From Patescibacteria group bacterium (GTDB lineage Bacteria > Patescibacteriota > Patescibacteriia > Patescibacteriales > GWC2-42-12), in the NCBI GenBank assembly GCA_041662965.1, contig JBAZRI010000001.1:99680-163679 (forward strand): a DNA stretch of 64,000 nt, read 5' to 3'. Every line of letters begins with the position of its first letter. Position 1 is the stretch's first letter. Of the stretch, positions 3,574-43,130 are shown one piece after another. Both the position numbers and the translations under genes were made by a program. The notes beneath the pieces were generated by a model, which saw only the letters and a list, made by a program, of their open reading frames with translations, was not told where the DNA came from and searched no databases.

Positions 3574-4089
3574 ATGCCAACCGAAAATACCAATGAACCA
3601 ATAGTAGAAACCCCAACTCCGCCGGTTGAGCCTGCGGCAGAGCCTGCTATTCCGATCGTGGCACCTGTGCTAACTCCGGAAGCTCAACCGCCTGCGGCCG
3701 AAACTCCGCCGCCGCCGGCAGAGCCGGTTAACGCGACAAACACCTCACCCCCCGCCGACGCTGAAGCTATGGCGGGCGAGCAACCCTCTCCTTATCAAGG
3801 AGAGGGAGCAAAGCAAACCGGCCAACCCTCTGGAGAGGGAGCAAAGCAAACCGGCATAACCGCTTTGCTTATGAAAGCCAAAGAGAAAATTCAGTTTAGG
3901 AAGCGGGCGAAATTGGAAAAGATTATGGCGCTGGCGCAAAGCCGGGGAAAAATTACCAATAATGACGCGCAAAAACTTTTGCGCGTGTCTGACGCTACGG
4001 CTACGCGCTATTTAGCCGAACTGGTAAAACAGGGGAGATTAAGGCGGGTTGGGCCGGCCAATAACGCTTTTTATGAAATTAACGGCTAA
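3574..4089 (+). CDS. Pro/Ala-rich protein with C-terminal winged-helix DNA-binding domain
   Basis: The N-terminal half is low-complexity P/E/A-rich. It contains a tandem GEGAKQTG repeat. The C-terminus ITNNDAQKLLRVSDATATRYLAELVKQGRLRRVG looks like a DeoR/MarR-type wHTH. Confidence 0.55.
   Translation: MPTENTNEPIVETPTPPVEPAAEPAIPIVAPVLTPEAQPPAAETPPPPAEPVNATNTSPPADAEAMAGEQPSPYQGEGAKQTGQPSGEGAKQTGITALLMKAKEKIQFRKRAKLEKIMALAQSRGKITNNDAQKLLRVSDATATRYLAELVKQGRLRRVGPANNAFYEING
3781..3855 (+). repeat. In-frame tandem duplication with hairpin-forming units inside the wHTH protein gene
   Basis: caaccctct(ccttatcaa)ggagagggagcaaagcaaaccggc occurs twice. ccctctcc...ggagaggg is self-complementary. Confidence 0.75.
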
Positions 4090-4568: not shown

Positions 4569-5519
4569 ATGCCAATGCAAAAGTATCTGAAAATCGCCGG
4601 GTTTATCGCGCTGGTTATTTTGGTTTCATATTTCGGCATCATGGCCATGCTTACGGGCATGGGCAATAAATCTTACAACACTTTGTCCGTGGAATCGGGT
4701 GCCGGCATGGGAATATTCCAAACCGCGGCGCCGTCAATGAAATCCGCTCCGATGTTTTCCGGCGAAAGCGCTAGGGATTCGGCCGCGACCATAGAGCAAG
4801 CGCTAAGCCCGAGCTCGGTGGTTCAGCCGATTGATAAAAAAATCATAAAAACCGGAGACTTAAGCTTAAAGGTTGAGCGCGCGGAAACCGCGGCCGAGAG
4901 CATCACCAATATCGCCAAAGTGAACAAAGGCGAAGTGGCCGGCTCCAATTTTTACGAATCCACCCGGGGCGTAAAATCCGGCTTTATTACCGTGCGCGTG
5001 CCGTACAATAATTTTGACGCCGCCTTTGCCGAAATAAAAAAAGTCGCCACTCAAGTCGTTTCCGAGTCAAGCAATTCCCAGGACATAACCGAGCAGTATA
5101 TTGACCTGGAAGCGCGGCTTAAAAATAAGCAAGCCGAGGAAGTGTCGTTTGCCGCGCTATTAAACCGCGCCGGCAAGCTTGAAGAAATAATTTCCGTAAC
5201 CAGAGAGCTGGCCAGGGTGCGCGGCGAAATTGAACAGCTTCAGGGCCAACTGCGCTATTTAAATTCCCAAACCGATATGTCAACCATCACGGCCAGCTTA
5301 AGCGAAGACGTGGAAATCGCGGCGGCCAGCCAAGATTGGCGGCCCTGGCAGGTAATTAAGCTTTCGGTTAAACAGCTTATAACCGCCGGCCAGAATTTCG
5401 TTGACGGCCTGATCGCTTTTTTGATTGTCGTTCTGCCCATGCTCATAATTTACGGCCTGATAATCTGGGCGCTTTACCTTATCGGCAAAAAAATTTATAA
5501 CCGGACTAAAGGCTTATAG
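4569..5519 (+). CDS. DUF4349-like membrane-anchored protein
   Basis: N-terminal TM, then IIKTGDLSLKVE...ITVRVP...DITEQYIDLEARLKNK...LQGQLRYLNSQTDMSTITASL, then a C-terminal TM. This is the typical DUF4349 layout as I recall it. Confidence 0.65.
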   Translation: MPMQKYLKIAGFIALVILVSYFGIMAMLTGMGNKSYNTLSVESGAGMGIFQTAAPSMKSAPMFSGESARDSAATIEQALSPSSVVQPIDKKIIKTGDLSLKVERAETAAESITNIAKVNKGEVAGSNFYESTRGVKSGFITVRVPYNNFDAAFAEIKKVATQVVSESSNSQDITEQYIDLEARLKNKQAEEVSFAALLNRAGKLEEIISVTRELARVRGEIEQLQGQLRYLNSQTDMSTITASLSEDVEIAAASQDWRPWQVIKLSVKQLITAGQNFVDGLIAFLIVVLPMLIIYGLIIWALYLIGKKIYNRTKGL

Positions 5520-5580
5520 TTGAAAAATAGAGAATCAGTACCGGCGATTTTATAATTTATTTTTTTAAGCATAAAATAAT

Positions 5581-6234
5581 ATGATCTATCTGCTTGACCT
5601 ATTGGGCACGCTGGCTTTTGCCGTGGGCGGAGCCTATAAAGCCAAAGGCAGAAAATTAAATTTATTCGGCGTGGTTTTTTTAGGCGCCATAACCGCGGTC
5701 GGCGGCGGCACGATCCGCGACTTAATCATCGGCCGGACGCCGCTATTCTACCTTAGAGATTCTAATTATCTCTTAATCTGCTTATTGGCCGGACTGGCGA
5801 CATATTTGCTCCCCAATTTTTTTAAAAAAACTTATTCCATTTTCCGCTTGATTGATTCAATCGGCTTGGCGGTTTTCGTGATCATCGGAGCTTCTATCTG
5901 CCAATCTTTTTTATTTAACGGCGCGATCCTGCCGACGGTTTTATCCTCTTTCGCCTGCGTATTCTTAGGCATGCTGACCGGTTTCGGCGGCGGGGTTTTG
6001 CGCGACGCTATCATGGGCGATACGCCCTTTGCTTTAAAGCCCGGGTCAAATTATGTTTCCAGCGCTTTTTTCGGAGCTTCCATTTATTATTTTTTAATGT
6101 TTTTCAATAACAATCTGGCGATATTCATATCAATTATTACTACTTTGGTTTTACGGGAAATCGTGTCAGAATACGGGATATATAAAAAGCTAGTAGTTAA
6201 AAAATCATTTTTTAATAAAATCTTTAATAAGTAG
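5581..6234 (+). CDS. Trimeric intracellular cation channel / UPF0126 (YadS/YicG-like) membrane protein
   Basis: The glycine-rich motif is duplicated (AVGGGTIRDLIIGRTP and GFGGGVLRDAIMGDTP) within a 7-TM-like profile. Confidence 0.8.
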   Translation: MIYLLDLLGTLAFAVGGAYKAKGRKLNLFGVVFLGAITAVGGGTIRDLIIGRTPLFYLRDSNYLLICLLAGLATYLLPNFFKKTYSIFRLIDSIGLAVFVIIGASICQSFLFNGAILPTVLSSFACVFLGMLTGFGGGVLRDAIMGDTPFALKPGSNYVSSAFFGASIYYFLMFFNNNLAIFISIITTLVLREIVSEYGIYKKLVVKKSFFNKIFNK

Positions 6235-6235
6235 C

Positions 6236-6517
6236 ATGGATAATCCAATTAACCTTATAAAATTTAAGGCGGCGCTCGAAAAAAATAAAGAAATTTATCT
6301 GCGGATTAAGGCGCGGCCGGGCGCGGCTAAAACCGGCCTTAAAGAGATTATGGCGGACCAGACCATTAAAATAGATATAGCGGCGCCGGCCGTTAAGAAT
6401 AAAGCCAATCAAGAATTAATAAAATTTTTAGCCGGACAATTTGCGGTAAATAAAAATAATGTTAAGATAATCAGCGGAGCGGGGGAGAGGGTTAAATTAG
6501 TAAAGATAGTAAAATAA
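6236..6517 (+). CDS. DUF167 (YggU) family protein
   Basis: About 93 aa with LRIKARPGAAKTGL...IKIDIAAPAVKNKANQELIKFLA...VKIISGAGERVKLVKI, the characteristic YggU pattern. Confidence 0.75.
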   Translation: MDNPINLIKFKAALEKNKEIYLRIKARPGAAKTGLKEIMADQTIKIDIAAPAVKNKANQELIKFLAGQFAVNKNNVKIISGAGERVKLVKIVK

Positions 6518-6528
6518 TAAAAGAAATG

Positions 6529-6608
6529 GATTGCGGATCAAGTCCGCAATGACAATAAATTGGAGATTGCTTCGTCGCCTCGTAGATGCGGGGCTCCTCG
6601 CAATGACA
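6529..6608. repeat. Family A palindromic repeat (GTCATTGCGAG...GAAGCAATCTC type): short variant plus full copy
   Basis: gattgcggatcaagtccgcaatgaca (6529-6554) and gagattgcttcgtcgcctcgtagatgcggggctcctcgcaatgaca (6563-6608). Confidence 0.8.
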
Positions 6609-6617
6609 AATAAAAAT

Positions 6618-7328
6618 ATGCCAGATAAAACCAATCAAAAAAATATTCCGCTTCATGTCGGTATCATCATGGACGGCAACCGGCGTTGGGCGCGGGAAAG
6701 GAATTTGCCGACTTTTGAGGGGCATCTTTTAGGCTATGAAAAAATGAAGCAGGCGCCGGAATGGTTTTTCTCCCGCGGCGTAAAAATTTTATCATTTTAC
6801 GCTTTTTCCACGGAAAATTGGAACCGCCAGCCGGTGGAAGTGAATTATTTAATGAAGTTACTCCAGAACGCGGTTGAAAATAATTTGCGCGCTTTGGCTA
6901 AAAAGAACGGCTATAAAATTTTAATCAGCGGGCGCTTGGAAGAATTGCCCGGAGATTTGCCGGCTAAATGCCTGGAAATAATCCAAGAAACCAAAGCCAA
7001 CAATCAGGGGACTGTTAACGTCTGCTTGAATTACGGCGGGCGGGCGGAAATAGTCGACGCGGCGCGCAAGCTGATAAAAAATAAAGTTGAGCTTGAACAG
7101 GTGCACGAAGGCATGATAAAAAAATATTTATACAGCCCCGATCTGCCGGATCCGGACATAATCGTGCGCACTTCGGGCGAACAGCGGTTATCCGGCTTTT
7201 TAACCTGGCAGTCGGTTTACAGCGAATTATTTTTTATGAAAAAATATTGGCCGGATTTTGAAGAGTCGGACGCCGAAGCTGTTATAAAAGAATATGAGAA
7301 TAGGAACAGAAGGCATGGAGCAAATTGA
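6618..7328 (+). CDS. uppS: Isoprenyl transferase (undecaprenyl-diphosphate synthase family)
   Basis: Motifs HVGIIMDGNRRWA, FSTENWNR and RTSGEQRLSGFLTWQS. The track start at 6531 reads through a repeat element, so ATG 6618 (or 6603) is the more plausible start. Confidence 0.9.
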   Translation: MPDKTNQKNIPLHVGIIMDGNRRWARERNLPTFEGHLLGYEKMKQAPEWFFSRGVKILSFYAFSTENWNRQPVEVNYLMKLLQNAVENNLRALAKKNGYKILISGRLEELPGDLPAKCLEIIQETKANNQGTVNVCLNYGGRAEIVDAARKLIKNKVELEQVHEGMIKKYLYSPDLPDPDIIVRTSGEQRLSGFLTWQSVYSELFFMKKYWPDFEESDAEAVIKEYENRNRRHGAN

Positions 7329-7408
7329 AATTCGCGGCTAAAATCCTTTCTATTTTCCGGAAGGGTTTTTTTGTTGAATAATTATGGTTATTTTGCTAAA
7401 CTTTGTTC

Positions 7409-8617
7409 ATGAATAATCAAGCTAAAACTTCGCCTTTGGCCGACCGGCTGCGGCCGGAAACTTTAGAGGAATTTTTAGGCCAGGAAGAGATTGTCGGCCA
7501 GGGGAAAATGCTTAGGCAGGCCATAGAAGCGGATAAGGCGCCGTCGATGATTTTTTGGGGGCCGCCGGGCTCGGGCAAAACCACCTTGGCTTATATTATC
7601 GCTAAACATACCAAAGCGGAATTTATCAGGTTCAGCGCGGTAACCAGCGGGGTGAAAGATTTAAAAGAGGTGATTAAAAAGGCCAGAGCCAACGCCATTG
7701 AAGACAGGAAAACCGTTTTATTCATTGACGAAATCCACCGCTGGAACAAAGCCCAGCAGGACGCGCTTTTGCCCCATGTGGAAAAAGGAGTAATAACTTT
7801 AATCGGCGCCACTACGGAAAATCCCAGCTTTGAAGTGCGCGGGGCTTTATTGTCGCGCTGCCGCGTGTTTGTTTTAAAGCAATTAAGCGCCGAGCAAATT
7901 GGAGAAATTATCAAGAATGCGCTTAAAGATAAATTAAAAGGGCTGGGCGAAGCGGCCGTAAAAATAAGCGCTGAAACCATAAATATGCTGGCGCTGATGT
8001 CTAACGGCGACGCGCGCACGGCCTTGAATGTTTTGGAATATGCGGCCGCGCTGGACGCCGATATCACCGCCGACATTATCAAGCAAGCTTTTCAAAAATC
8101 ATATTTGCTTTATGATAAAGACGGGGAAGAGCATTATAATATAATTTCAGCTTTGCATAAAGCCTTGCGCGGCTCGGACGCGGACGCGGCGCTGTATTGG
8201 CTGGCGCGCATGCTGGAAGCCGGCGAAGATCCGCTTTATATAGCGCGGCGCTTAGTGCGCTTCGCTTCCGAGGATATCGGCTTGGCTAATTCGCGCGCTT
8301 TAGAGCAAGCCGTGGCCGCCTATCAAGCCTGCCATTTCATCGGCCTGCCAGAATGCAATGTTATTTTAGCCCAGGCCGTTGTTTATCTGGCTAAGTGCGA
8401 AAAGTCTAATGAACTTTATACGGCTTACAATCAGGCGGCGCATGACGTCCATGAATTAGGCAATCTGCCCGTGCCTTTGCATATCCGCAACGCGCCGACC
8501 AAATTAATGAAAGATTTAAATTACGGCAAAGATTATAAATATTCGCCTGACTACGGCTATAAAGAAAAGCAGGAGTATTTGCCGGAAAAGCTGAAAAATA
8601 AAAAATATTTAAAATAA
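7409..8617 (+). CDS. rarA: Replication-associated recombination protein A (AAA+ ATPase RarA/MgsA)
   Basis: [21 protein letters not shown], Walker [10 protein letters not shown], Walker [12 protein letters not shown] and the MgsA C-terminal region [23 protein letters not shown]. The first ATG is at 7409; the track start at 7403 is TTG. Confidence 0.9.
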
Positions 8618-9897: not shown

Positions 9898-9950
9898 GGT
9901 TACTTTCTTATAACTAAGAAAGTAACCAAACCTGCCTGCCGGTAGGCAGG
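9898..9950. repeat. Perfect 12-bp-stem hairpin followed by a family B 20-bp palindrome
   Basis: gttactttcttataactaagaaagtaac, then cctgcctgccggtaggcagg (9931-9950). Confidence 0.75.
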
Positions 9951-27069: not shown

Positions 27070-28887
27070 ATGGATAATATACGCAATTTTTGCATCATCG
27101 CCCATATTGACCACGGCAAATCAACCATGGCTGACCGCATGCTGGAAATTACCGGCACGATTGAAAAAAGAAAAATGAGAGATCAGGTATTGGATCGCAT
27201 GGATCTAGAAAGAGAAAGAGGCATCACGATTAAGCTGCAGCCGGTAAAAATGGATTACCAGGGATATGCTTTGAATTTAATTGATACGCCCGGGCATGTT
27301 GATTTTACTTATGAAGTTTCGCGCAGTTTGGCGGCGGTTGAAGGCGCGGTGCTGCTCGTGGACGCGTCGCAGGGCATCCAAGCGCAAACTTTGGCGAATT
27401 TGTATCTGGCCTTGGAGCAAAATTTAACCATAATCCCGGTAATCAATAAAATTGATTTGTCGGCCGCCAATGTAGAGAAAACCAAAAAAGAAATCATTCA
27501 GCTTTTAGGCTGTTCAGCCGAGGAAATTATTCTGGCTTCAGGCAAAACCGGCCAGGGCATAGAAGAAGTTTTAAAAGCGGTTATAGAGCATGTGCCGGCG
27601 CCCTCCTACGCTGAAGCTTCGGAGGGCAAGCCGATTATTGTGGCGGCTGAAAATGCACCTCTTAGGGCCCTGATTTTTGATTCAACTTATGATGAATATC
27701 GCGGCGTGGTGGCTTATATCAGAGTTTTTGACGGCCGGATTGAAAAGGGCGATAAAATAATGCTCTTGGCCACCAAAGCTAAGAGCGAAGCGTTGGACGT
27801 GGGGATTTTCAAGCCCGAATATAAATCTACCGGAGAATTAAAAACCGGCGAGATCGGCTATATCGTGACCGGCTTTAAAGATGTCGGCGAGTGCCGCGTC
27901 GGCGATACGGTCGCTTGGCTGAAATCGGAGAATAAAATTAATCCGCTTAAGGGCTATGATGAAGTAAAGCCCATGGTGTTCGCCGGAGTTTTTCCGCGCG
28001 AAGGCAATGAATTTGACGAGTTGAGGGAAGCGATTTCCAAATTAAAATTAAATGACGCGGCCCTGATTTACGAGCCGGAGCATTCCGAGGCTTTAGGCTT
28101 TGGCTTTAGGTGCGGTTTTTTAGGACTCTTGCATCTGGAAATTTTTCAAGAGCGCTTAAGCCGGGAATATAATTTAAATTTAACGGTTACCATTCCCAGC
28201 GTAGCTTACAAGGTTTATAAAAAAAATGGCGATAACGCGATTATCCGCAGCCCGCAAAAACTGCCCGACCCTTCGGCGATAGATAAAATTGAAGAGCCGT
28301 GGGTCAGTCTGGATATTATCGCGCCCAAAGAATATATCGGAGCGATTTTGAATTTAGTGCAAGAAAAACGCGGCGTTTATAAAAATACCGAATATATTGA
28401 CGAGAGCCGGGTGATTTTGCATTACGAAATTCCCATGGCGGCGATCTTAACGGATTTTTATGACAAGATTAAAAGCGCCAGCTCCGGCTATGCTTCCATA
28501 AATTATGAATTTAAAGGCTATCAGCCGGCCGATGTGGTTAAAATGGATATTTTAGTGGCCGAAGACGCGGTTGAGGCTTTAGCCATGATAGTTTATCGCG
28601 ACGATGCTTTTAAGCGGGGGAAAGACGTGGTTAATACTTTAAAAGAAACTTTGCCCAAACAAATGTTCGCTATTAAATTGCAGGCGGCGGTCGGCGGGAA
28701 AATTATCGCGGCCGAAAGGATTTCCGCCATGCGCAAAGACGTAACGGCTAAATTATACGGCGGCGATGTTTCGCGCAAAAGAAAATTATTGGAAAAGCAG
28801 AAAAAAGGCAAAAAGAAGATGGAAGCTCACGGCAAAGGCAAGGTGGAAATTCCCAGCGATACTTTTGTAAAATTGTTAAAAAGGTAA
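27070..28887 (+). CDS. lepA: Translation elongation factor 4 (LepA)
   Basis: IRNFCIIAHIDHGKSTMADR, DTPGHVDF, NKIDL and the LepA C-terminal domain. It contains a short in-frame palindromic insert (see findings). Confidence 0.95.
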   Translation: MDNIRNFCIIAHIDHGKSTMADRMLEITGTIEKRKMRDQVLDRMDLERERGITIKLQPVKMDYQGYALNLIDTPGHVDFTYEVSRSLAAVEGAVLLVDASQGIQAQTLANLYLALEQNLTIIPVINKIDLSAANVEKTKKEIIQLLGCSAEEIILASGKTGQGIEEVLKAVIEHVPAPSYAEASEGKPIIVAAENAPLRALIFDSTYDEYRGVVAYIRVFDGRIEKGDKIMLLATKAKSEALDVGIFKPEYKSTGELKTGEIGYIVTGFKDVGECRVGDTVAWLKSENKINPLKGYDEVKPMVFAGVFPREGNEFDELREAISKLKLNDAALIYEPEHSEALGFGFRCGFLGLLHLEIFQERLSREYNLNLTVTIPSVAYKVYKKNGDNAIIRSPQKLPDPSAIDKIEEPWVSLDIIAPKEYIGAILNLVQEKRGVYKNTEYIDESRVILHYEIPMAAILTDFYDKIKSASSGYASINYEFKGYQPADVVKMDILVAEDAVEALAMIVYRDDAFKRGKDVVNTLKETLPKQMFAIKLQAAVGGKIIAAERISAMRKDVTAKLYGGDVSRKRKLLEKQKKGKKKMEAHGKGKVEIPSDTFVKLLKR

Positions 28888-39109: not shown

Positions 39110-40606
39110 ATGGAAAAAAATTTAGATGGCATAAAAAAATTAAATCCGGAAGAAATAAAGAAAAATCGCAAGATAGTATTAAGTTATATCGGGGAAAAAG
39201 ATTCGGAATCCGCTAAAGAGCAAAAAGCTCCGGCCGCGGTTGCTTCGGCTTCTAACAAGGTTGACGGGATTAAATCAAATAGAATTTCTAACTTTAAATC
39301 AAAAGTTAAGAGTATGCTAGAGAGGCCGGCGCCGGCGTTAGATAATCAGGCGGATAAAATGGAAAAAATCAAGCAGGAAGAGTCAGTTAAAAAAGAGATA
39401 GCTGAAAAGGGCAAGCTCGAAGCCGAGGAAAAATTCAAGGCCGAAGAAGCCAGGCGTTTGGAAGAAGAAAAAGTAGGGCGGGAAAAAACCGAGCAAGAAG
39501 AATCGGCCAAGAAAGAAATGGCTAAAAAATCCAAACTTCTGGCCGAGGAAAAGGCTAAAGCTGAAGAAATTAAGCGGTTAGCCGAAGAAAAAGCCGGCCG
39601 GGAGAAAGCCAAGCAGGAAGAATCAGTTAAAAAAGAGATAGCTAAAAAGTCCAAGCTCGAAGCCGAGGAAAAAGCTAAGGCTGAAGAAGCCAAAAAGTGG
39701 AGCGAGAAATTAAGGCTGGAAGAAAAAATAAAAAATGAAGAAAGAATAATTGAAGATAATAAACGTTTGGAAAAAATAAAAAGAGATGAAGAAATAAAAA
39801 GAATAAAGCAAGAAATTAAATTATCCAAGATAGCGGCCGCGAAAAAAAGAAAAATAAAACGGCAGAAAGCCATAAAACTTTTCAGAAAGAATTTAAATAA
39901 AAAATTAGGTGAATTTTTTTCTATTGTTAAGCGGAATTTTGCTTACGGGATGTTATATTTATTTTTTTCTTTAATTATCGGCTACGCGGTTTTTTGCCTG
40001 CTGGTATTAAGATTTGATAATGATGATAATATTATCGGCAGAGCGGCGCGCGTTTTACCCGTGCCAGCGGTAATTACCAGCCAAGGTATAATAAATTATT
40101 ATGATTTCCGCGATATAAAAAATAATAATTATTCTAATCTAAGTTTAGCGGGAAAAAAGAATAGTTTAGCCAAATGGGTGATTTTAAAAAATTTAAGCGG
40201 AAAATATAGTTTGCCGATTAATTCGCCCAGCGAAGCTTTTGCCGTGGCCTTCGCCGCGGACGAAGATTTTAATCAAGTGGGGCTATCCAGGATAAAAAAA
40301 ATAAGCGAGCTTTTAAAAAACGTTGATAATTTAGAGCAATTGAACAAATACGCCGATGAATATAGCGAGGTAATTTATTATGACGGCGAGAGTGCGGCGG
40401 AAAAATTCGGGCCGGCGGTTTTTAATTTAAATTCCGGCCAGATCAGCGATATAATTTTTAGCGGCGACGGCTATTATATCGCGCAATTTATTGATAATGA
40501 AAACGGGCGGTTAGGCATAAAATATCTTTTTGTCGGAGCGAAAACTTTAGATCAATATGTCGGCGAGAAATTAGCCAAGATTAAAATTTTTATATTAGCC
40601 AATTAG
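39110..40606 (+). CDS. Membrane protein with K/E-rich 40-aa tandem repeats and a C-terminal parvulin/SurA-like region (weak)
   Basis: 3 x 120-bp repeats, a central TM (MLYLFFSLIIGYAVFCLLVL), and a C-terminal GQISDIIFSGDGYYIAQFID reminiscent of PpiC-type domains. ATG at 39110; the track start at 39104 is GTG. Confidence 0.5.
   Translation: MEKNLDGIKKLNPEEIKKNRKIVLSYIGEKDSESAKEQKAPAAVASASNKVDGIKSNRISNFKSKVKSMLERPAPALDNQADKMEKIKQEESVKKEIAEKGKLEAEEKFKAEEARRLEEEKVGREKTEQEESAKKEMAKKSKLLAEEKAKAEEIKRLAEEKAGREKAKQEESVKKEIAKKSKLEAEEKAKAEEAKKWSEKLRLEEKIKNEERIIEDNKRLEKIKRDEEIKRIKQEIKLSKIAAAKKRKIKRQKAIKLFRKNLNKKLGEFFSIVKRNFAYGMLYLFFSLIIGYAVFCLLVLRFDNDDNIIGRAARVLPVPAVITSQGIINYYDFRDIKNNNYSNLSLAGKKNSLAKWVILKNLSGKYSLPINSPSEAFAVAFAADEDFNQVGLSRIKKISELLKNVDNLEQLNKYADEYSEVIYYDGESAAEKFGPAVFNLNSGQISDIIFSGDGYYIAQFIDNENGRLGIKYLFVGAKTLDQYVGEKLAKIKIFILAN
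39365..39724 (+). repeat. In-frame tandem repeat, 3 x 120 bp (KxxQEESxKKExAxKxKLxAEEKxKAEExxR...)
   Basis: Units at 39365-39484, 39485-39604 and 39605-39724 align at both the DNA and the protein level. Confidence 0.85.
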
Positions 40607-40626
40607 GAAAATCGTTTCTAAAAATA

Positions 40627-40659
40627 AAAAACCAGCCCGGTTTATAGGGCTGTTTTTTA
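40627..40659 (+). terminator. Intrinsic terminator
   Basis: Stem cagccc / gggctg flanked by an A-run and a T-run. Confidence 0.65.
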
Positions 40660-40669
40660 TTGATTTATG

Positions 40670-40742
40670 AGCCGATGGTCGGGATTGAACCGACAACCTA
40701 TGGTTTACGATACCATTGCTCTACCAGTTGAGCTACATCGGC
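40670..40742 (-). tRNA. tRNA-Thr (anticodon CGT)
   Basis: Manual fold of the reverse complement: acceptor GCCGATG/CATCGGC, D-stem GCTC/GAGC, anticodon stem ATGGT/ACCAT with loop ATCGTAA, T-arm GTCGG-TTCAATC-CCGAC, discriminator T. No CCA. Confidence 0.9.
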
Positions 40743-40846
40743 GCTCTTTATCCGGAGCCTTATAGCGCGTAGTACGCGGCTCCAATATTTTACTTTATAA
40801 ATACTTGCCCCCGGAGCATAAGCGCAGGGGGAGCTACATCGGCGCT
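40730..40846. repeat. 16-nt direct repeats (gagctacatcggcgct) bracketing an 85-bp insert at the 5' end of tRNA-Thr
   Basis: The copies lie at 40730-40745 (part of the tRNA) and 40831-40846. The insert spans 40746-40830 and contains two GC hairpins. Confidence 0.85.
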
Positions 40847-40884
40847 TTTTATTTAAGCCTTATAAAATGCTATCTCGGCAAGTT

Positions 40885-41217
40885 TTAAACTATATCATAT
40901 CTGGGAATAATATCAATAGCCGGCTCTTCGTAAGGGTGGGCTTTTTTAATTTCAGCAACTGCTTTTTCCACTAGATTTTTACGGCAGATGACCTGGATTA
41001 ATTCTTCTTCAACTTTTTCAATCCGGCCGATTTTACCGATAGCCGGCCGCGCGCCCTTTATCGGCTTAAAGCGGCCGATCTGCCTGATGGAACCGCTGCA
41101 AAATTCATAATTTCCCTGGATGCCGGCGCCGGCGCGGCTTAAAGCTTGGCGGATTTTTTCCGCTGATGAAACCGGCACGCTGACTTGAATTTTTACATAT
41201 TTGGATTGTTTAAGCAT
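40885..41217 (-). CDS. Stand-alone NIF3/YqfO-type PII-like cap domain protein
   Basis: VKIQVSVP...IRQALSRAGAGIQGNYEFCSGS...GRFKPIKGARPAIGKIGRIEKVEEELIQVI...IKKAHPYEEPAIDIIP matches the insert domain of NIF3-family proteins as I recall it. Confidence 0.65.
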   Translation of the reverse strand: MLKQSKYVKIQVSVPVSSAEKIRQALSRAGAGIQGNYEFCSGSIRQIGRFKPIKGARPAIGKIGRIEKVEEELIQVICRKNLVEKAVAEIKKAHPYEEPAIDIIPRYDIV

Positions 41218-41219
41218 AT

Positions 41220-41339
41220 GAGCGGGTAACGGGAACCCGCCTGCGCGCGAGACTGCGGCGGGCGAGAGCCGGAATAATTGCGGCTTATCTAATATTTATC
41301 CTGCGGAGCATAAGCCAAACAGGGAGCGGGTAACGGGAA
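41220..41339. repeat. 16-nt direct repeats (gagcgggtaacgggaa) bracketing an 88-bp insert at the 3' end of tRNA-Gly
   Basis: The copies lie at 41220-41235 and 41324-41339 (part of the tRNA). The insert at 41236-41323 shares ggagcataagc...agg and a gagcc/ggctc hairpin with the tRNA-Thr insert. Confidence 0.85.
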
Positions 41340-41395
41340 TCGGACCCGTGCCTAAACCTTGGGAAGGTCTCGTACTGCCATTATACTATACCCGC
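41325..41395 (-). tRNA. tRNA-Gly (anticodon CCC)
   Basis: Manual fold: acceptor GCGGGTA/TACCCGC, anticodon stem AGACC/GGTTT with loop TTCCCAA, T-arm ACGGG-TCCGATT-CCCGT, discriminator T. No CCA. Confidence 0.85.
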
Positions 41396-41486
41396 AATGA
41401 TAATTTTCAAATCCCAATGACCAATTTTCAATGAATGATTAAATTAATAAATTTTCAATTGTTAGTCCTGCCTTGTGCAGGGAAAA

Positions 41487-41516
41487 TTGAAAATTCATCT
41501 TTAAGTATGCTATAAT
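41487..41516 (+). promoter_or_regulatory. Candidate promoter TTGAAA-18 nt-(TGc)TATAAT, 9 nt upstream of the ATG
   Basis: TTGAAA at 41487-41492 and TATAAT at 41511-41516 with an upstream TG. The ATG at 41526 implies a very short or absent leader. Confidence 0.45.
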
Positions 41517-41525
41517 TATATTTGT

Positions 41526-43130
41526 ATGTTGAAGCAAAGTCAAACGGCGAGAGTAATAACAATTTTTTTACTAACCTTAACGCTGACCGCCATGGCCGGT
41601 AGTTTTGTTTATGCGGCTGAAGCGGCCGAAATCACAGCCAATCGCTCTTATTTTATAAATTTGGACAAGCAGACGATCGCCAAAGGCTATACGGTCAGCG
41701 CTTTTGCAGAAACGATTAAGCTCTCTTTAACTCCCGGAATATTAAGCCAATCTACCGGAGTGGACGCGGTTGAATTAAATGAAGCCATCGACGATCCCTG
41801 GCAATTAGAAAGAATCAGCAAGGTTTATCAGTTTGAATTCAGAAACAAAGCCGCTTACGATAATAAGAAGCCCTTTTATATCCAATTATCTTATGATAAG
41901 ACCTCGGATTATTATAAGCAAGTTTATTATTATGATAAAAATTATTCTTCCTGGCGGCCTTTGCCCACGGTTGATTATCCGGATAAATCATTCGCGCGCT
42001 CTTTAATCCATCTGCCGTTCGCCCGCCTGGCGGTTTTCGCCAATCCGGAAGCTTTGGTCCAAGGCCGGGCCAGCTGGTATAAATATAAAGGCGGTTTATT
42101 CGCGGCTTCGCCGGATTTTCCCAAAGGTTCAAAACTGCGCGTTTTTAACACGGCTAACAATAAATTCGTTGACGTCATAATAAATGATTTCGGCCCGGAA
42201 AGAAAACTCCACCCGGACAGAGTTATTGATTTGGATTATGTAGCTTTTAAAAAAATAGCTTCTACCGGCGCGGGCATAATTAATATCAGAGTTCAGCCAA
42301 TCAGCATTGTTCCGGAAAATAATAAAATTTTGGATATTGCCGAGTCCGGAGCTAAGGCCGAGCTCTTAATTACGGCTAAATCGGCCATAGCCATGGATGA
42401 GCAAACCGGCGAAACACTCTGGCAGAAAAACGCCACCAGCACTTTGCCTTTGGCCAGTTTGACAAAACTGGTGGCCATAAAAGTTTTTTTAGATACCCGG
42501 CCGACTTTAAACAGCCAAGTGGCTTACAGCCTTAAAGATGAGGAATATAATTATGAATACGTTAATAAATGGGAATCGGCCAGGCTGAAATTGCAAGACG
42601 GCGACACTTTAACCATTGAAGATTTACTTTACGCGGCTTTAGTCGGCTCGGCCAATAACGCGGTTGAAACTTTAGTGCGCGTCAGCGGTCTTGAAAGAGA
42701 CGAATTTATATTAAAAATGAATCAGGAGGTTGCTCTCTGGGGCGCTACTGCCACGCATTTTATCGAGCCCACGGGATTATCCCCGGAGAATGTGAGCTCG
42801 GCGCTTGATTATGCTATAATAACTAAAGAAGTTTATACTCATCCGATTATCCAAAAAGCCAGCGTTATGCATCAGTATAAATTTGCCACGGTAAACACCA
42901 AAAAAGCTCATACCATAACCAATACGGATAAACTTTTAGGGGTAAGCAGTTTAGATATCACCGGCTCTAAAACCGGCTATCTTGACGAGGCCCAATATTG
43001 CTTGATGGCGCGGGCGAAAAATAAATCAGGCAGGCAAATAATCGCCGTAACCATGGGCGTAGACAGCCGGCAAAACAGTTTTGACCAGACCGAGCAATTA
43101 TTAAAGTACGCCCTGAAGATGATAAAATAA
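41526..43130 (+). CDS. Secreted fusion protein: RlpA-like double-psi beta-barrel + D-alanyl-D-alanine carboxypeptidase (peptidase S11)
   Basis: Signal peptide; DPBB GRASWYKYKGGLFAASPDFPKGSKLRVFN...VDVIINDFGP; S11 motifs SLTK (LASLTKL), SAN (VGSANNA) and KTG (SKTGYL). Confidence 0.8.
   Translation: MLKQSQTARVITIFLLTLTLTAMAGSFVYAAEAAEITANRSYFINLDKQTIAKGYTVSAFAETIKLSLTPGILSQSTGVDAVELNEAIDDPWQLERISKVYQFEFRNKAAYDNKKPFYIQLSYDKTSDYYKQVYYYDKNYSSWRPLPTVDYPDKSFARSLIHLPFARLAVFANPEALVQGRASWYKYKGGLFAASPDFPKGSKLRVFNTANNKFVDVIINDFGPERKLHPDRVIDLDYVAFKKIASTGAGIINIRVQPISIVPENNKILDIAESGAKAELLITAKSAIAMDEQTGETLWQKNATSTLPLASLTKLVAIKVFLDTRPTLNSQVAYSLKDEEYNYEYVNKWESARLKLQDGDTLTIEDLLYAALVGSANNAVETLVRVSGLERDEFILKMNQEVALWGATATHFIEPTGLSPENVSSALDYAIITKEVYTHPIIQKASVMHQYKFATVNTKKAHTITNTDKLLGVSSLDITGSKTGYLDEAQYCLMARAKNKSGRQIIAVTMGVDSRQNSFDQTEQLLKYALKMIK

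Follow-up and report, generated by a model that had tools for sequence, protein, structure and literature searches.

Small inserts flanked by duplicated tRNA ends at a tRNA–ORF–tRNA locus of a Patescibacteria genome

How can two neighbouring tRNA genes each have a second copy of one of their own ends some 90 nucleotides (nt) away and yet remain intact? The question is raised by a locus in a 64,000-nt stretch of DNA from a Patescibacteria group bacterium (GCA_041662965.1, contig JBAZRI010000001.1, positions 99,680 to 163,679). We call this whole stretch the window and use its coordinates throughout. Here, a gene for tRNA-Gly(CCC), a small open reading frame (ORF) related to the cap domain of NIF3-family proteins and a gene for tRNA-Thr(CGU) follow one another, all on the minus strand, and a short segment containing no ORF lies between the small ORF and each tRNA. 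We refer to the segment beside tRNA-Gly as insert A (or E_Gly, together with its homologues elsewhere) and to the segment beside tRNA-Thr as insert B. Small insertions at tRNA ends are real and recurrent in bacteria of the Candidate Phyla Radiation (CPR) and apparently undescribed; several mechanisms compete to explain them.

Both tRNA genes are contiguous and full-length. ARAGORN and Rfam place tRNA-Gly(CCC) at 41325-41395 (62.1 bits; 3' limit called at 41323 or 41325) and tRNA-Thr(CGU) at 40670-40742 (69 bits; 3' limit called at 40669 or 40670), confirming the claim of the first-pass annotation that both genes survive their inserts. The gene for tRNA-Gly does not encode CCA (..GCU-CC-C). The intactness of the two genes, together with the absence of any intron match in Rfam, rejects a tRNA intron of the group I or bulge-helix-bulge type. 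Searched at a permissive threshold from 40300 to 41700, Rfam returned nothing beyond the two tRNAs.

The gene-proximal end of each tRNA overlaps an exact 16-nt direct repeat. On the glycine side the repeat (TTCCCGTTACCCGCTC) comprises tRNA nt T59 to the discriminator U73, plus C74. Its left copy (41324-41339) lies within the functional tRNA and its right copy (41220-41235) is followed by AT and the ATG of the ORF at 41217, so that the second copy sits 2 nt upstream of the start codon, as had been noted. On the threonine side the perfect core (AGCGCCGATGTAGCTC) comprises tRNA nt 1-13 preceded by three leader nucleotides (AGC). The right copy (leader plus tRNA nt 1-13, 40730-40751) belongs to the functional gene and the left copy lies at 40831-40852, with its core at 40831-40846. 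Both 16-mers were found where they had been described, each spanning a tRNA terminus and each present exactly twice in the window (GAGCGGGTAACGGGAA at 41220 and 41324; GAGCTACATCGGCGCT at 40730 and 40831). The real window contains five exact direct repeats that are 16 nt or longer and lie within 200 nt, two of them on tRNA ends, compared with 0.01 per Markov-shuffled window. The further statement that both duplications are exactly 16 bp holds for the glycine repeat and for the perfect threonine core, but not for the threonine repeat as a whole. This extends to 22 nt with one mismatch and, by eye, to an imperfect repeat of ~35 nt, TATAAGGCT[TAA/CCGG]ATAAA[A/G]AGCGCCGATGTAGCTC, with degenerate similarity in the left copy reaching to about 40864.

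Folding indicates two hairpins in each of the bracketed segments. Insert A (88 nt, 41236-41323) is made up of hairpin 1 (CCTG..GCTTATGCTCCG..CAGG, 41300-41323), an AT-rich spacer (41264-41299) and hairpin 2 (GCCCGCC..GGCGGG, 41236-41263). Insert B (85 nt, 40746-40830) likewise has hairpin 1 (CCCC..GCTTATGCTCC..GGGG, then CAAG; 40808-40830), an AT-rich spacer (40784-40807) and hairpin 2 (GGAGCC..GGCTCC, 40754-40783), and ends in a leader-like tail. A promoter and terminator scan found nothing convincing within either insert. The insert spacer was considered as a decayed 5' part of tRNA-Gly, given its similar length (55-57 nt), and rejected for want of sequence similarity. The derivation of hairpin 2 from the acceptor or T-stem of tRNA-Gly, suggested by a resemblance of GC-rich motifs, is unproven.

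Comparison with relatives establishes the ancestral state of the locus. About 170 loci, numbered here with the prefix L, were fetched via homologues of the ORF from genomes, metagenomes and read assemblies. The order tRNA-Gly(CCC), ORF, tRNA-Thr(CGU) is kept in many Patescibacteria, from 83% to about 51% amino acid (aa) identity of the ORF. The ancestral packing is extremely tight: tRNA-Gly and the ATG are 0-2 nt apart, and in many loci tRNA-Thr starts 2-11 nt past the stop codon. Packed examples are L002 (3415-3899, equivalent to 40670-41395 of the window), L004, L006, L013, L025 and L090. The empty glycine site, ..CCCGCTC followed by 0-2 nt and ATG, is seen in L002, L003, L090, L004, L013 and L025, and tRNA-Gly also lies 0-2 nt from the ATG in L006. 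The closest relative of the window, a Candidatus Falkowbacteria metagenome-assembled genome (MAG; L002, 83% aa), reads ..TTCCCGTTACCCGCTC-T-ATG, with one repeat copy and no insert. Thus, insert A plus one repeat copy is a derived insertion of 104 nt, and the right repeat copy occupies the position of the tRNA end in empty-site relatives. The empty sites also rule out conserved processing signals as an account of the 16-mers. The first-pass annotation had proposed looking for empty sites and for further copies of the insert. Both exist in orthologous loci, and the pattern that it named as refuting an insertion, a duplicated 16-mer without an insert, occurs at no orthologous locus.

Insert A has homologues at the same position, in the same orientation and with the same two-hairpin architecture in four other assemblies, at lengths of 87-94 nt. 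In L088 (NCBI GCA_024449895.1; 87 nt) the repeat is perfect and its 16-mer identical to TTCCCGTTACCCGCTC of the window. In L093 (JGI Ga0172379; 94 nt) it is again perfect and reads TTCTCGTATCCCGCTC, matching that genome's own, different tRNA-Gly allele. The 87-nt inserts of L267 (Logan SRR7076692) and L328 (Logan SRR22388049) are 69% and 76% identical to insert A. Their repeats have diverged: 16 + 2 nt remain between hairpin 2 and the ATG, and this segment departs from the present tRNA. Viewed as a target duplication, the repeat measures 16 nt in the window, L088 and L093 and an inferred 16 + 2 nt in L267 and L328, and empty sites hold a single copy. Wherever the flanking repeat is intact, it equals the local tRNA-Gly allele. 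The insert structure is found across ENA, NCBI, JGI and Logan assemblies that were made independently. An assembly artefact is unlikely, as the repeats fall well below the assembler k-mer in length (k141, implied by the ENA contig name of the window, ERZ27249449:k141_996582) and the structure occurs in four other independent assemblies.

Every E_Gly copy has a C right after GCTC, a hairpin with a 5-bp stem, an AT-rich spacer, the invariant TCTCGCCCGC and a closing arm of the GGCGGG type. Over the first ~50 nt the alignment of the copies is gap-free, and a single 1-nt gap (in L093) precedes the TCTCGCCCGC block. Across four aligned copies, 51/52 stem cells are paired (98%) and 3/5 pairs of hairpin 1 show compensatory changes; none of 500 shuffles reached the observed pairing or covariation. 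RNAalifold independently recovered the same two terminal hairpins from the alignment.

The distribution of E_Gly is patchy. In neighbour-joining trees of the ORF, which rest on 110 aa and hence are weak, the window groups with L002 (empty), L267 and L328 with the empty L327, and L088 with L005 and L091. Carriers thus fall in separate clades beside empty relatives, which requires either several gains or several exact losses. Furthermore, the ORFs of L088 and L328 are each 75% identical to the window ORF at the aa level, whereas E_Gly of L328 is 76% identical to that of the window and E_Gly of L088 is, by eye in the alignment rather than by computation, far more diverged. In other words, divergence of E_Gly does not track that of the ORF.

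The threonine side is more complex. The two inserts had been called homologous, and hairpin 1 upholds this: an exact 12-mer (CGGAGCATAAGC) is common to its loop in inserts A and B, at equal offset from the repeat. The claim does not extend to the remainder, as nhmmer with either whole insert matches only that insert itself; a profile of the four E_Gly copies matches insert B weakly (E=0.055). The junction GCTC|C is common to inserts A and B of the window and to L088, L093, L267, L328, L028 and L104, and in L028 and L104 it falls at tRNA-Thr nt 13/14. Several loci have a tRNA-Thr 5' fragment with a GC-rich hairpin directly after it. The retained segment is nt 1-13 in L028 (exact repeat of 13 nt) and in L104/L105 (14 nt), nt 1-16 in L072 (17 nt), nt 1-15 with two mismatches in L096, nt 1-10 in L003 and nt 5-12 in L267. 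The L104 insert has a 14-nt repeat and inverted termini (24/31 matches, p<0.002). A tRNA-Thr identical to the 73-nt gene of the window occurs without insert B in L267 and L084.

In the window, the threonine core sits in an array of tRNA-Thr 5' fragments. Upstream of it, as shown by a fragment map and comparison with L002 and L003, lies an 11-nt fragment of a different allele (GCCGAGATAGC, nt 1-11; 40869-40879). It begins 5 nt past the stop codon of the ORF (AACTT between), which is the ancestral start position of tRNA-Thr. This displaced fragment is older than the other tRNA-Thr 5' copy. A leader-like stretch of 22 nt separates it from AGC and tRNA-Thr nt 1-13. In many loci, 3' fragments of other tRNA-Thr alleles lie downstream of the intact gene.

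The inserts are derived, their site, orientation, length and architecture recur, and their repeats match the local allele. We favour, at a probability of roughly 40%, the interpretation that inserts A and B are both copies of a non-autonomous insertion element of Patescibacteria, small (about 85-95 nt) and non-coding, that duplicates 16 bp of its target. Such an element would consist of one C, hairpin 1, an AT-rich spacer and a second GC-rich hairpin, and would integrate in one orientation, directly 3' of the tetranucleotide GCTC. In tRNA-Gly this tetranucleotide would correspond to the acceptor end, discriminator and C74, and in tRNA-Thr to the 5' strand of the D-stem (nt 10-13). An enzyme acting in trans would cut with a 16-bp stagger, and gap repair would duplicate the 16 bp upstream of the cut. 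As the duplication would reach the tRNA terminus, one copy would become part of an intact tRNA and the other would stay attached to the neighbouring ORF. E_Gly would have inserted just outside tRNA-Gly, after C74. Insert B would have entered tRNA-Thr itself after nt 13, a viable event only because a duplication of at least 13 nt rebuilds the 5' end. Given that the tRNAs abut the ORF by 0-11 nt, only insertions that preserve a tRNA would survive here. Several observations argue for the staggered cut: the constant 16-nt repeat of insert B and the well-preserved E_Gly copies, which follows the host allele; the same GCTC and orientation at two unrelated tRNA positions; the single repeat copy at the empty site; and the inverted termini of some family members. 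The cut itself, the type of enzyme and present-day mobility are our inferences.

A non-autonomous element with a tRNA-preserving 16-bp duplication was among the scenarios of the first-pass annotation, and it fits the tRNA-Gly insert well in the constancy of the repeat, its tracking of the allele and the fixed orientation 3' of GCTC. Other observations count against the target-duplicating element. Terminal inverted repeats are not detectable in insert A (p=0.98) or insert B (p=0.84) of the window; they are significant in E_Gly of L088 and L328 and in the tRNA-Thr element of L104 only. The right ends of inserts A and B are unrelated. The two threonine copies remain imperfectly alike for ~19 nt past the core, something a plain 16-bp target duplication would not lead one to expect. 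Related tRNA-Thr 5' duplications measure 13, 14, 15 and 17 nt and all end within 3 nt of tRNA position +1, the pattern expected if the extent of identity reflects how far the tRNA is conserved and not a fixed stagger. The E_Gly copies of the window, L267 and L328 share 69-80% identity, compared with 61-67% at third-codon positions of the ORF, so long residence under constraint is possible. No copy was found outside tRNA genes or at a non-orthologous tRNA in the window and about 330 loci; E-type sites there are confined to the orthologous tRNA-Gly site and the tRNA-Thr site of the window. Searches of the window and all loci by nhmmer, with each insert and with profiles of two and four E_Gly sequences, gave weak matches to generic GC hairpins only. 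The 12-mer GCTTATGCTCCG has one further exact match, in L007, where it lies in a hairpin loop near which an ORF has its 3' end; this suggests a dispersed hairpin family rather than an E element. Finally, no candidate transposase is known. On the other side, and in keeping with a non-autonomous element, none of the window ORFs of at least 110 aa examined (34 scanned directly, with 34.4-49.5 kb covered by precomputed Pfam lists) has a Pfam match to an integrase, transposase, Cas1 or reverse transcriptase. The sole RVT_3/RNase_H match in the window is a 137-aa RNase H.

A bolder form of the same proposal is that the inserts represent a previously undescribed class of tRNA-homing micro-elements: ~90 nt long, two-hairpin and protein-less, with a fixed 16-bp duplication by GCTC, moved by a Cas1-like, ISTde1-like or new enzyme. 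We regard this as doubtful.

The strongest alternative, which we consider unlikely though a serious contender, is an attachment-site (att) origin. The inserts could be miniature integrative elements moved in trans by a site-specific recombinase, or minimal scars of larger ones. The attachment site of the element (attP) would have carried a copy of the tRNA end, and integration would have restored the gene, leaving its former end as a displaced 16-nt piece. Islands that integrate into tRNA genes have as their standard signature just such a regenerated target together with a displaced fragment (PMC4383910). The repeats stop at the tRNA terminus in 9/9 catalogued cases, the varied lengths of the tRNA-Thr duplications that end near position +1 also favour this origin, and the degenerate similarity past the threonine core resembles an attP arm from a tRNA-Thr leader. 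Arrays of 5' and 3' fragments of other tRNA-Thr alleles (the window locus, L002, L003, L004, L006, L097 and L327) resemble the footprints of serial integration.

Viral genomes show that this part of tRNA-Gly can be used in such a way. In IMG/VR, most matches to the 16-mer core lie in tRNA-Gly genes from other phyla, and two are true att-like sites; GCCGATGTAGCTCCC has 57 matches there (a count only). Att-like sites made of the tRNA-Gly segment A58-C75 occur in the viral contigs L187 and L173. In L187 (IMG/VR 3300028032_000079, 4576-8552), whose host is GC-rich and not a Patescibacterium, the segment is a recombinase att core beside a large serine recombinase, with the att-like site lying 11 nt from the end of the 536-aa recombinase gene. 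A second identical site lies 2.3 kb downstream, bracketing a gene for an AAA/OLD-like ATPase. The glycine repeat begins in the T-loop, like the L187 sites, whereas the threonine repeat comprises the 5' end and D-stem, which is atypical for an integrase crossover; to our knowledge, the tRNA 5' end is not among the target locations of integrases. Several points tell against an att origin. No integrase lies in the inserts or among the examined ORFs of the 64 kb window, and a circle of only about 104 bp is too small to be a plausible double-stranded substrate for recombination. A single family would have to use at least three different cores matched to host alleles, plus a second core located at the 5' end of a tRNA. 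The constant length of 87-94 nt in five lineages is unlike the random decay of kilobase-sized elements. In IMG/VR, the attP-like junction of hairpin 2 and core has 0 matches, and the hairpin-2 pattern yields chance matches in GC-rich phages only.

Alternatively, there may be no dedicated element at all. Recombinational replacement of tRNA alleles could leave old fragments behind, with dispersed GC-rich palindromes filling the gaps and gene conversion keeping the fragments identical. The turnover of tRNA alleles at this locus is striking: L267, L328 and L327, within one ORF clade (81-84% aa), carry three tRNA-Gly(CCC) alleles that differ throughout the acceptor, anticodon and T stems, and several tRNA-Thr alleles likewise occur. 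Moreover, fragments often derive from an allele other than that of the intact gene (40869-40879 of the window, L003, L002, L009 and L104), the break points of tRNA-Thr fragments vary (10, 11, 12, 13, 15, 16 and 23), and similar hairpins exist elsewhere (27601 within lepA and 3751 in the window, L002:11850 and L003:14571). We nonetheless judge this explanation improbable, because it leaves three things unexplained: that E_Gly keeps its length, order and orientation across five lineages, that three of these have perfect 16-mers matching the host allele, and that one and the same GCTC|C junction is found in two different tRNAs.

The turnover of tRNA sequences around the locus takes other forms as well. 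Arrays of 3' tRNA-Thr fragments of other alleles lie past the live gene in L002, L003, L004, L006, L097 and L327, and in several genomes these fragments share a conserved 38-39-nt replacement (..cgccccgttttgatatttccgaaataagcaccgaggagc) of the 5' strand of the T-stem. Nested tRNA genes occur at L005:579-870, L088:~1105-1500 and L102:1193-1382 (Gly) and 1888-2070 (Thr). Here, a complete tRNA-Thr with complementary GC-rich arms (CCTGCCCGCC..GGCAGGCGGG) lies within the D-stem (23/24) of another tRNA-Thr; a further nested tRNA-Thr lies in the anticodon (35/36), and in L102 one tRNA-Gly interrupts another at 35/36. Most of the outer halves, when joined in silico, fold as canonical cloverleaves, and the interrupted outer tRNAs are either freshly disrupted genes or a new kind of bacterial tRNA intron. 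The micro-elements of the bolder proposal may be part of a wider system that includes such hairpin-armed cassettes, each with a whole replacement tRNA nested in a tRNA gene of the same identity (L005, L088 and L102). If so, the wider system would drive fast tRNA allele turnover at the locus. In a Saccharibacteria MAG (L055), the first 14 nt of tRNA-Cys are duplicated 122 nt upstream, with a hairpin directly after (1-330), and tRNA-Gly(GCC) is followed by a ~178-nt tandem repeat that starts in the T-loop and includes the 3' end and terminator, resembling Escherichia coli tyrT (1864-2200).

That the duplicated tRNA end and hairpins form a functional RNA or processing signal, a maintained leader directing RNase processing or translation of the NIF3-cap mRNA and akin to the E. 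coli tyrT distal repeats, each with a tRNA 3' end, is highly improbable: the compensatory changes in hairpin 1, the conservation of E_Gly slightly above third-codon positions, a possible 6-bp acceptor-like hairpin (GCGGGU/ACCCGC) in the right repeat copy just before the AUG and the tyrT-like repeat of the tRNA-Gly(GCC) 3' end in L055 are in its favour, but the insert is missing from most relatives, the closest included, where the ORF stays 0-2 nt from the tRNA, other lineages carry unrelated insertions without a tRNA-end copy before the ATG, the right repeat copy has diverged in L267 and L328, and Rfam has no match.

The gene between the inserts is the fixed point of the locus and lies outside the element. 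The ORF (110 aa, 40885-41217) matches residues 162-259 of PDB 2gx8 (E=2e-20) and is thus a stand-alone homologue of the NIF3-family cap domain; it also matches CutA1, weakly. Most of its 159 homologues are 110 aa long, and many Patescibacteria conserve it at this length. Packed loci leave no room for a Shine-Dalgarno sequence, and in L006 the encoded CCA overlaps the ATG. Such packing implies a nearly leaderless mRNA whose two ends both arise through tRNA processing. A bidirectional hairpin resembling an intrinsic terminator (40623-40652) closes the unit. Unrelated elements with clear inverted termini, similar to miniature inverted-repeat transposable elements (MITEs), occupy the same tRNA-flanking spacers in other genomes (L003:5260-5430, L003:5843-6008 and L084:~2598-2686), which indicates that the spacers around these tRNAs are general insertion hotspots.

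Hairpins are also dispersed elsewhere in the window. One of the same type as hairpin 1 of insert B (CCCTCC-tacgctgaagcttc-GGAGGG-CAAG, 27601-27630) lies in frame within lepA (27070-28887) and adds roughly ten residues to LepA (..SYAEASEGK..). At 3751-3860, a 33-nt tandem repeat (GGAGAGGGAGCAAAGCAAACCGGC..) adjoins a hairpin similar to hairpin 2 (GCTCGCCCGCC-atagcttcagcgtc-GGCGGG). The palindrome CCTGCCT(A/G)CCGGCAGGCAGG has seven copies, at 9931, 11110, 13733, 23717, 54765, 56330 and 56379. Most lie in hairpin units of ~130-150 nt whose inner motifs are conserved and whose outer inverted arms vary; these units are either MITE-like elements or a structured-RNA family.

If the proposed target-duplicating element is active, few known site-specific mobile DNAs would be as small, and none would have been described before it for CPR tRNA genes. 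Its long target duplication would act as built-in damage control for an essential single-copy gene. It would also help to explain how tRNA genes are still exchanged and overwritten in the streamlined, roughly 1-Mb genomes of episymbionts, and would point to an integration enzyme. Even if the inserts are att scars, the locus is a record of integration and replacement occurring frequently at tRNA genes, in organisms whose mobile elements are poorly charted. Apart from the inserts, the striking packing of tRNA, mRNA and tRNA implies that tRNA processing sets both ends of an mRNA.

Full-text searches of the literature on tRNA intervening sequences, nested or split tRNAs and palindromic repeats in Patescibacteria found no such inserts described; the Patescibacteria tRNA literature found deals with group I introns only (PMC13011429). 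The first-pass annotation held that the inserts fit no standard class. This stands to the extent that no known family agrees with them in every respect, but long duplications have precedents in casposons (14 bp) and in the ISTde1 group (15-17 bp).

Palindrome-associated transposable elements (PATEs) derived from IS200/IS605, and elements like the repetitive extragenic palindromes, resemble the inserts in having two different subterminal hairpins and no inverted termini. PATEs also share a fixed orientation and insertion directly 3' of a conserved tetranucleotide (here GCTC). They are not known to generate a target duplication, whereas a 16-nt repeat flanks every well-preserved insert copy. The distal repeats of E. 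coli tyrT (rtT RNA) also duplicate the 3' end of a tRNA: the end is repeated downstream of the gene, enclosing about 100-160 nt that do not belong to the tRNA. They differ in forming a single-locus tandem array of one unit, with no known empty/filled polymorphism across lineages, and have no sequence or Rfam similarity to the inserts.

Insertion sequences of the ISTde1 group (IS1202 family), which are DDE transposons, generate direct repeats of 15-17 bp (bioRxiv 10.1101/2022.12.17.520857). Like MITEs, the inserts are short and non-coding and presumably mobilised in trans. In contrast to MITEs and the ISTde1 group, the inserts lack TGT..ACA termini, the window copies lack inverted repeats, and only two copies occur in 64 kb, both at tRNAs.

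Casposons produce 14-bp target duplications in tRNA-Leu genes (PMC4779613). As with the inserts, their long fixed duplication can overlap the 3' part of a tRNA and leave it intact, and a conserved tetranucleotide lies at one end of the duplicated target (PMC4779613). They differ in being large and in having Cas1, PolB and terminal inverted repeats, all of which are lacking in the window inserts; they are also not known from Patescibacteria. Islands and prophages that integrate into tRNA genes leave, as seen at inserts A and B, an intact regenerated tRNA and a short displaced fragment as direct repeats (PMC4383910), and the glycine repeat covers their classic att segment from the T-loop to the 3' end. 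Unlike these islands, the inserts are ~90 nt rather than kilobases long, carry no integrase and combine one left arm with unrelated cores; one of them targets a tRNA 5' end, and their repeats follow the host allele. In their logic, the tRNA-integrating islands (PMC4383910) and the casposons (PMC4779613) come closest to the inserts.

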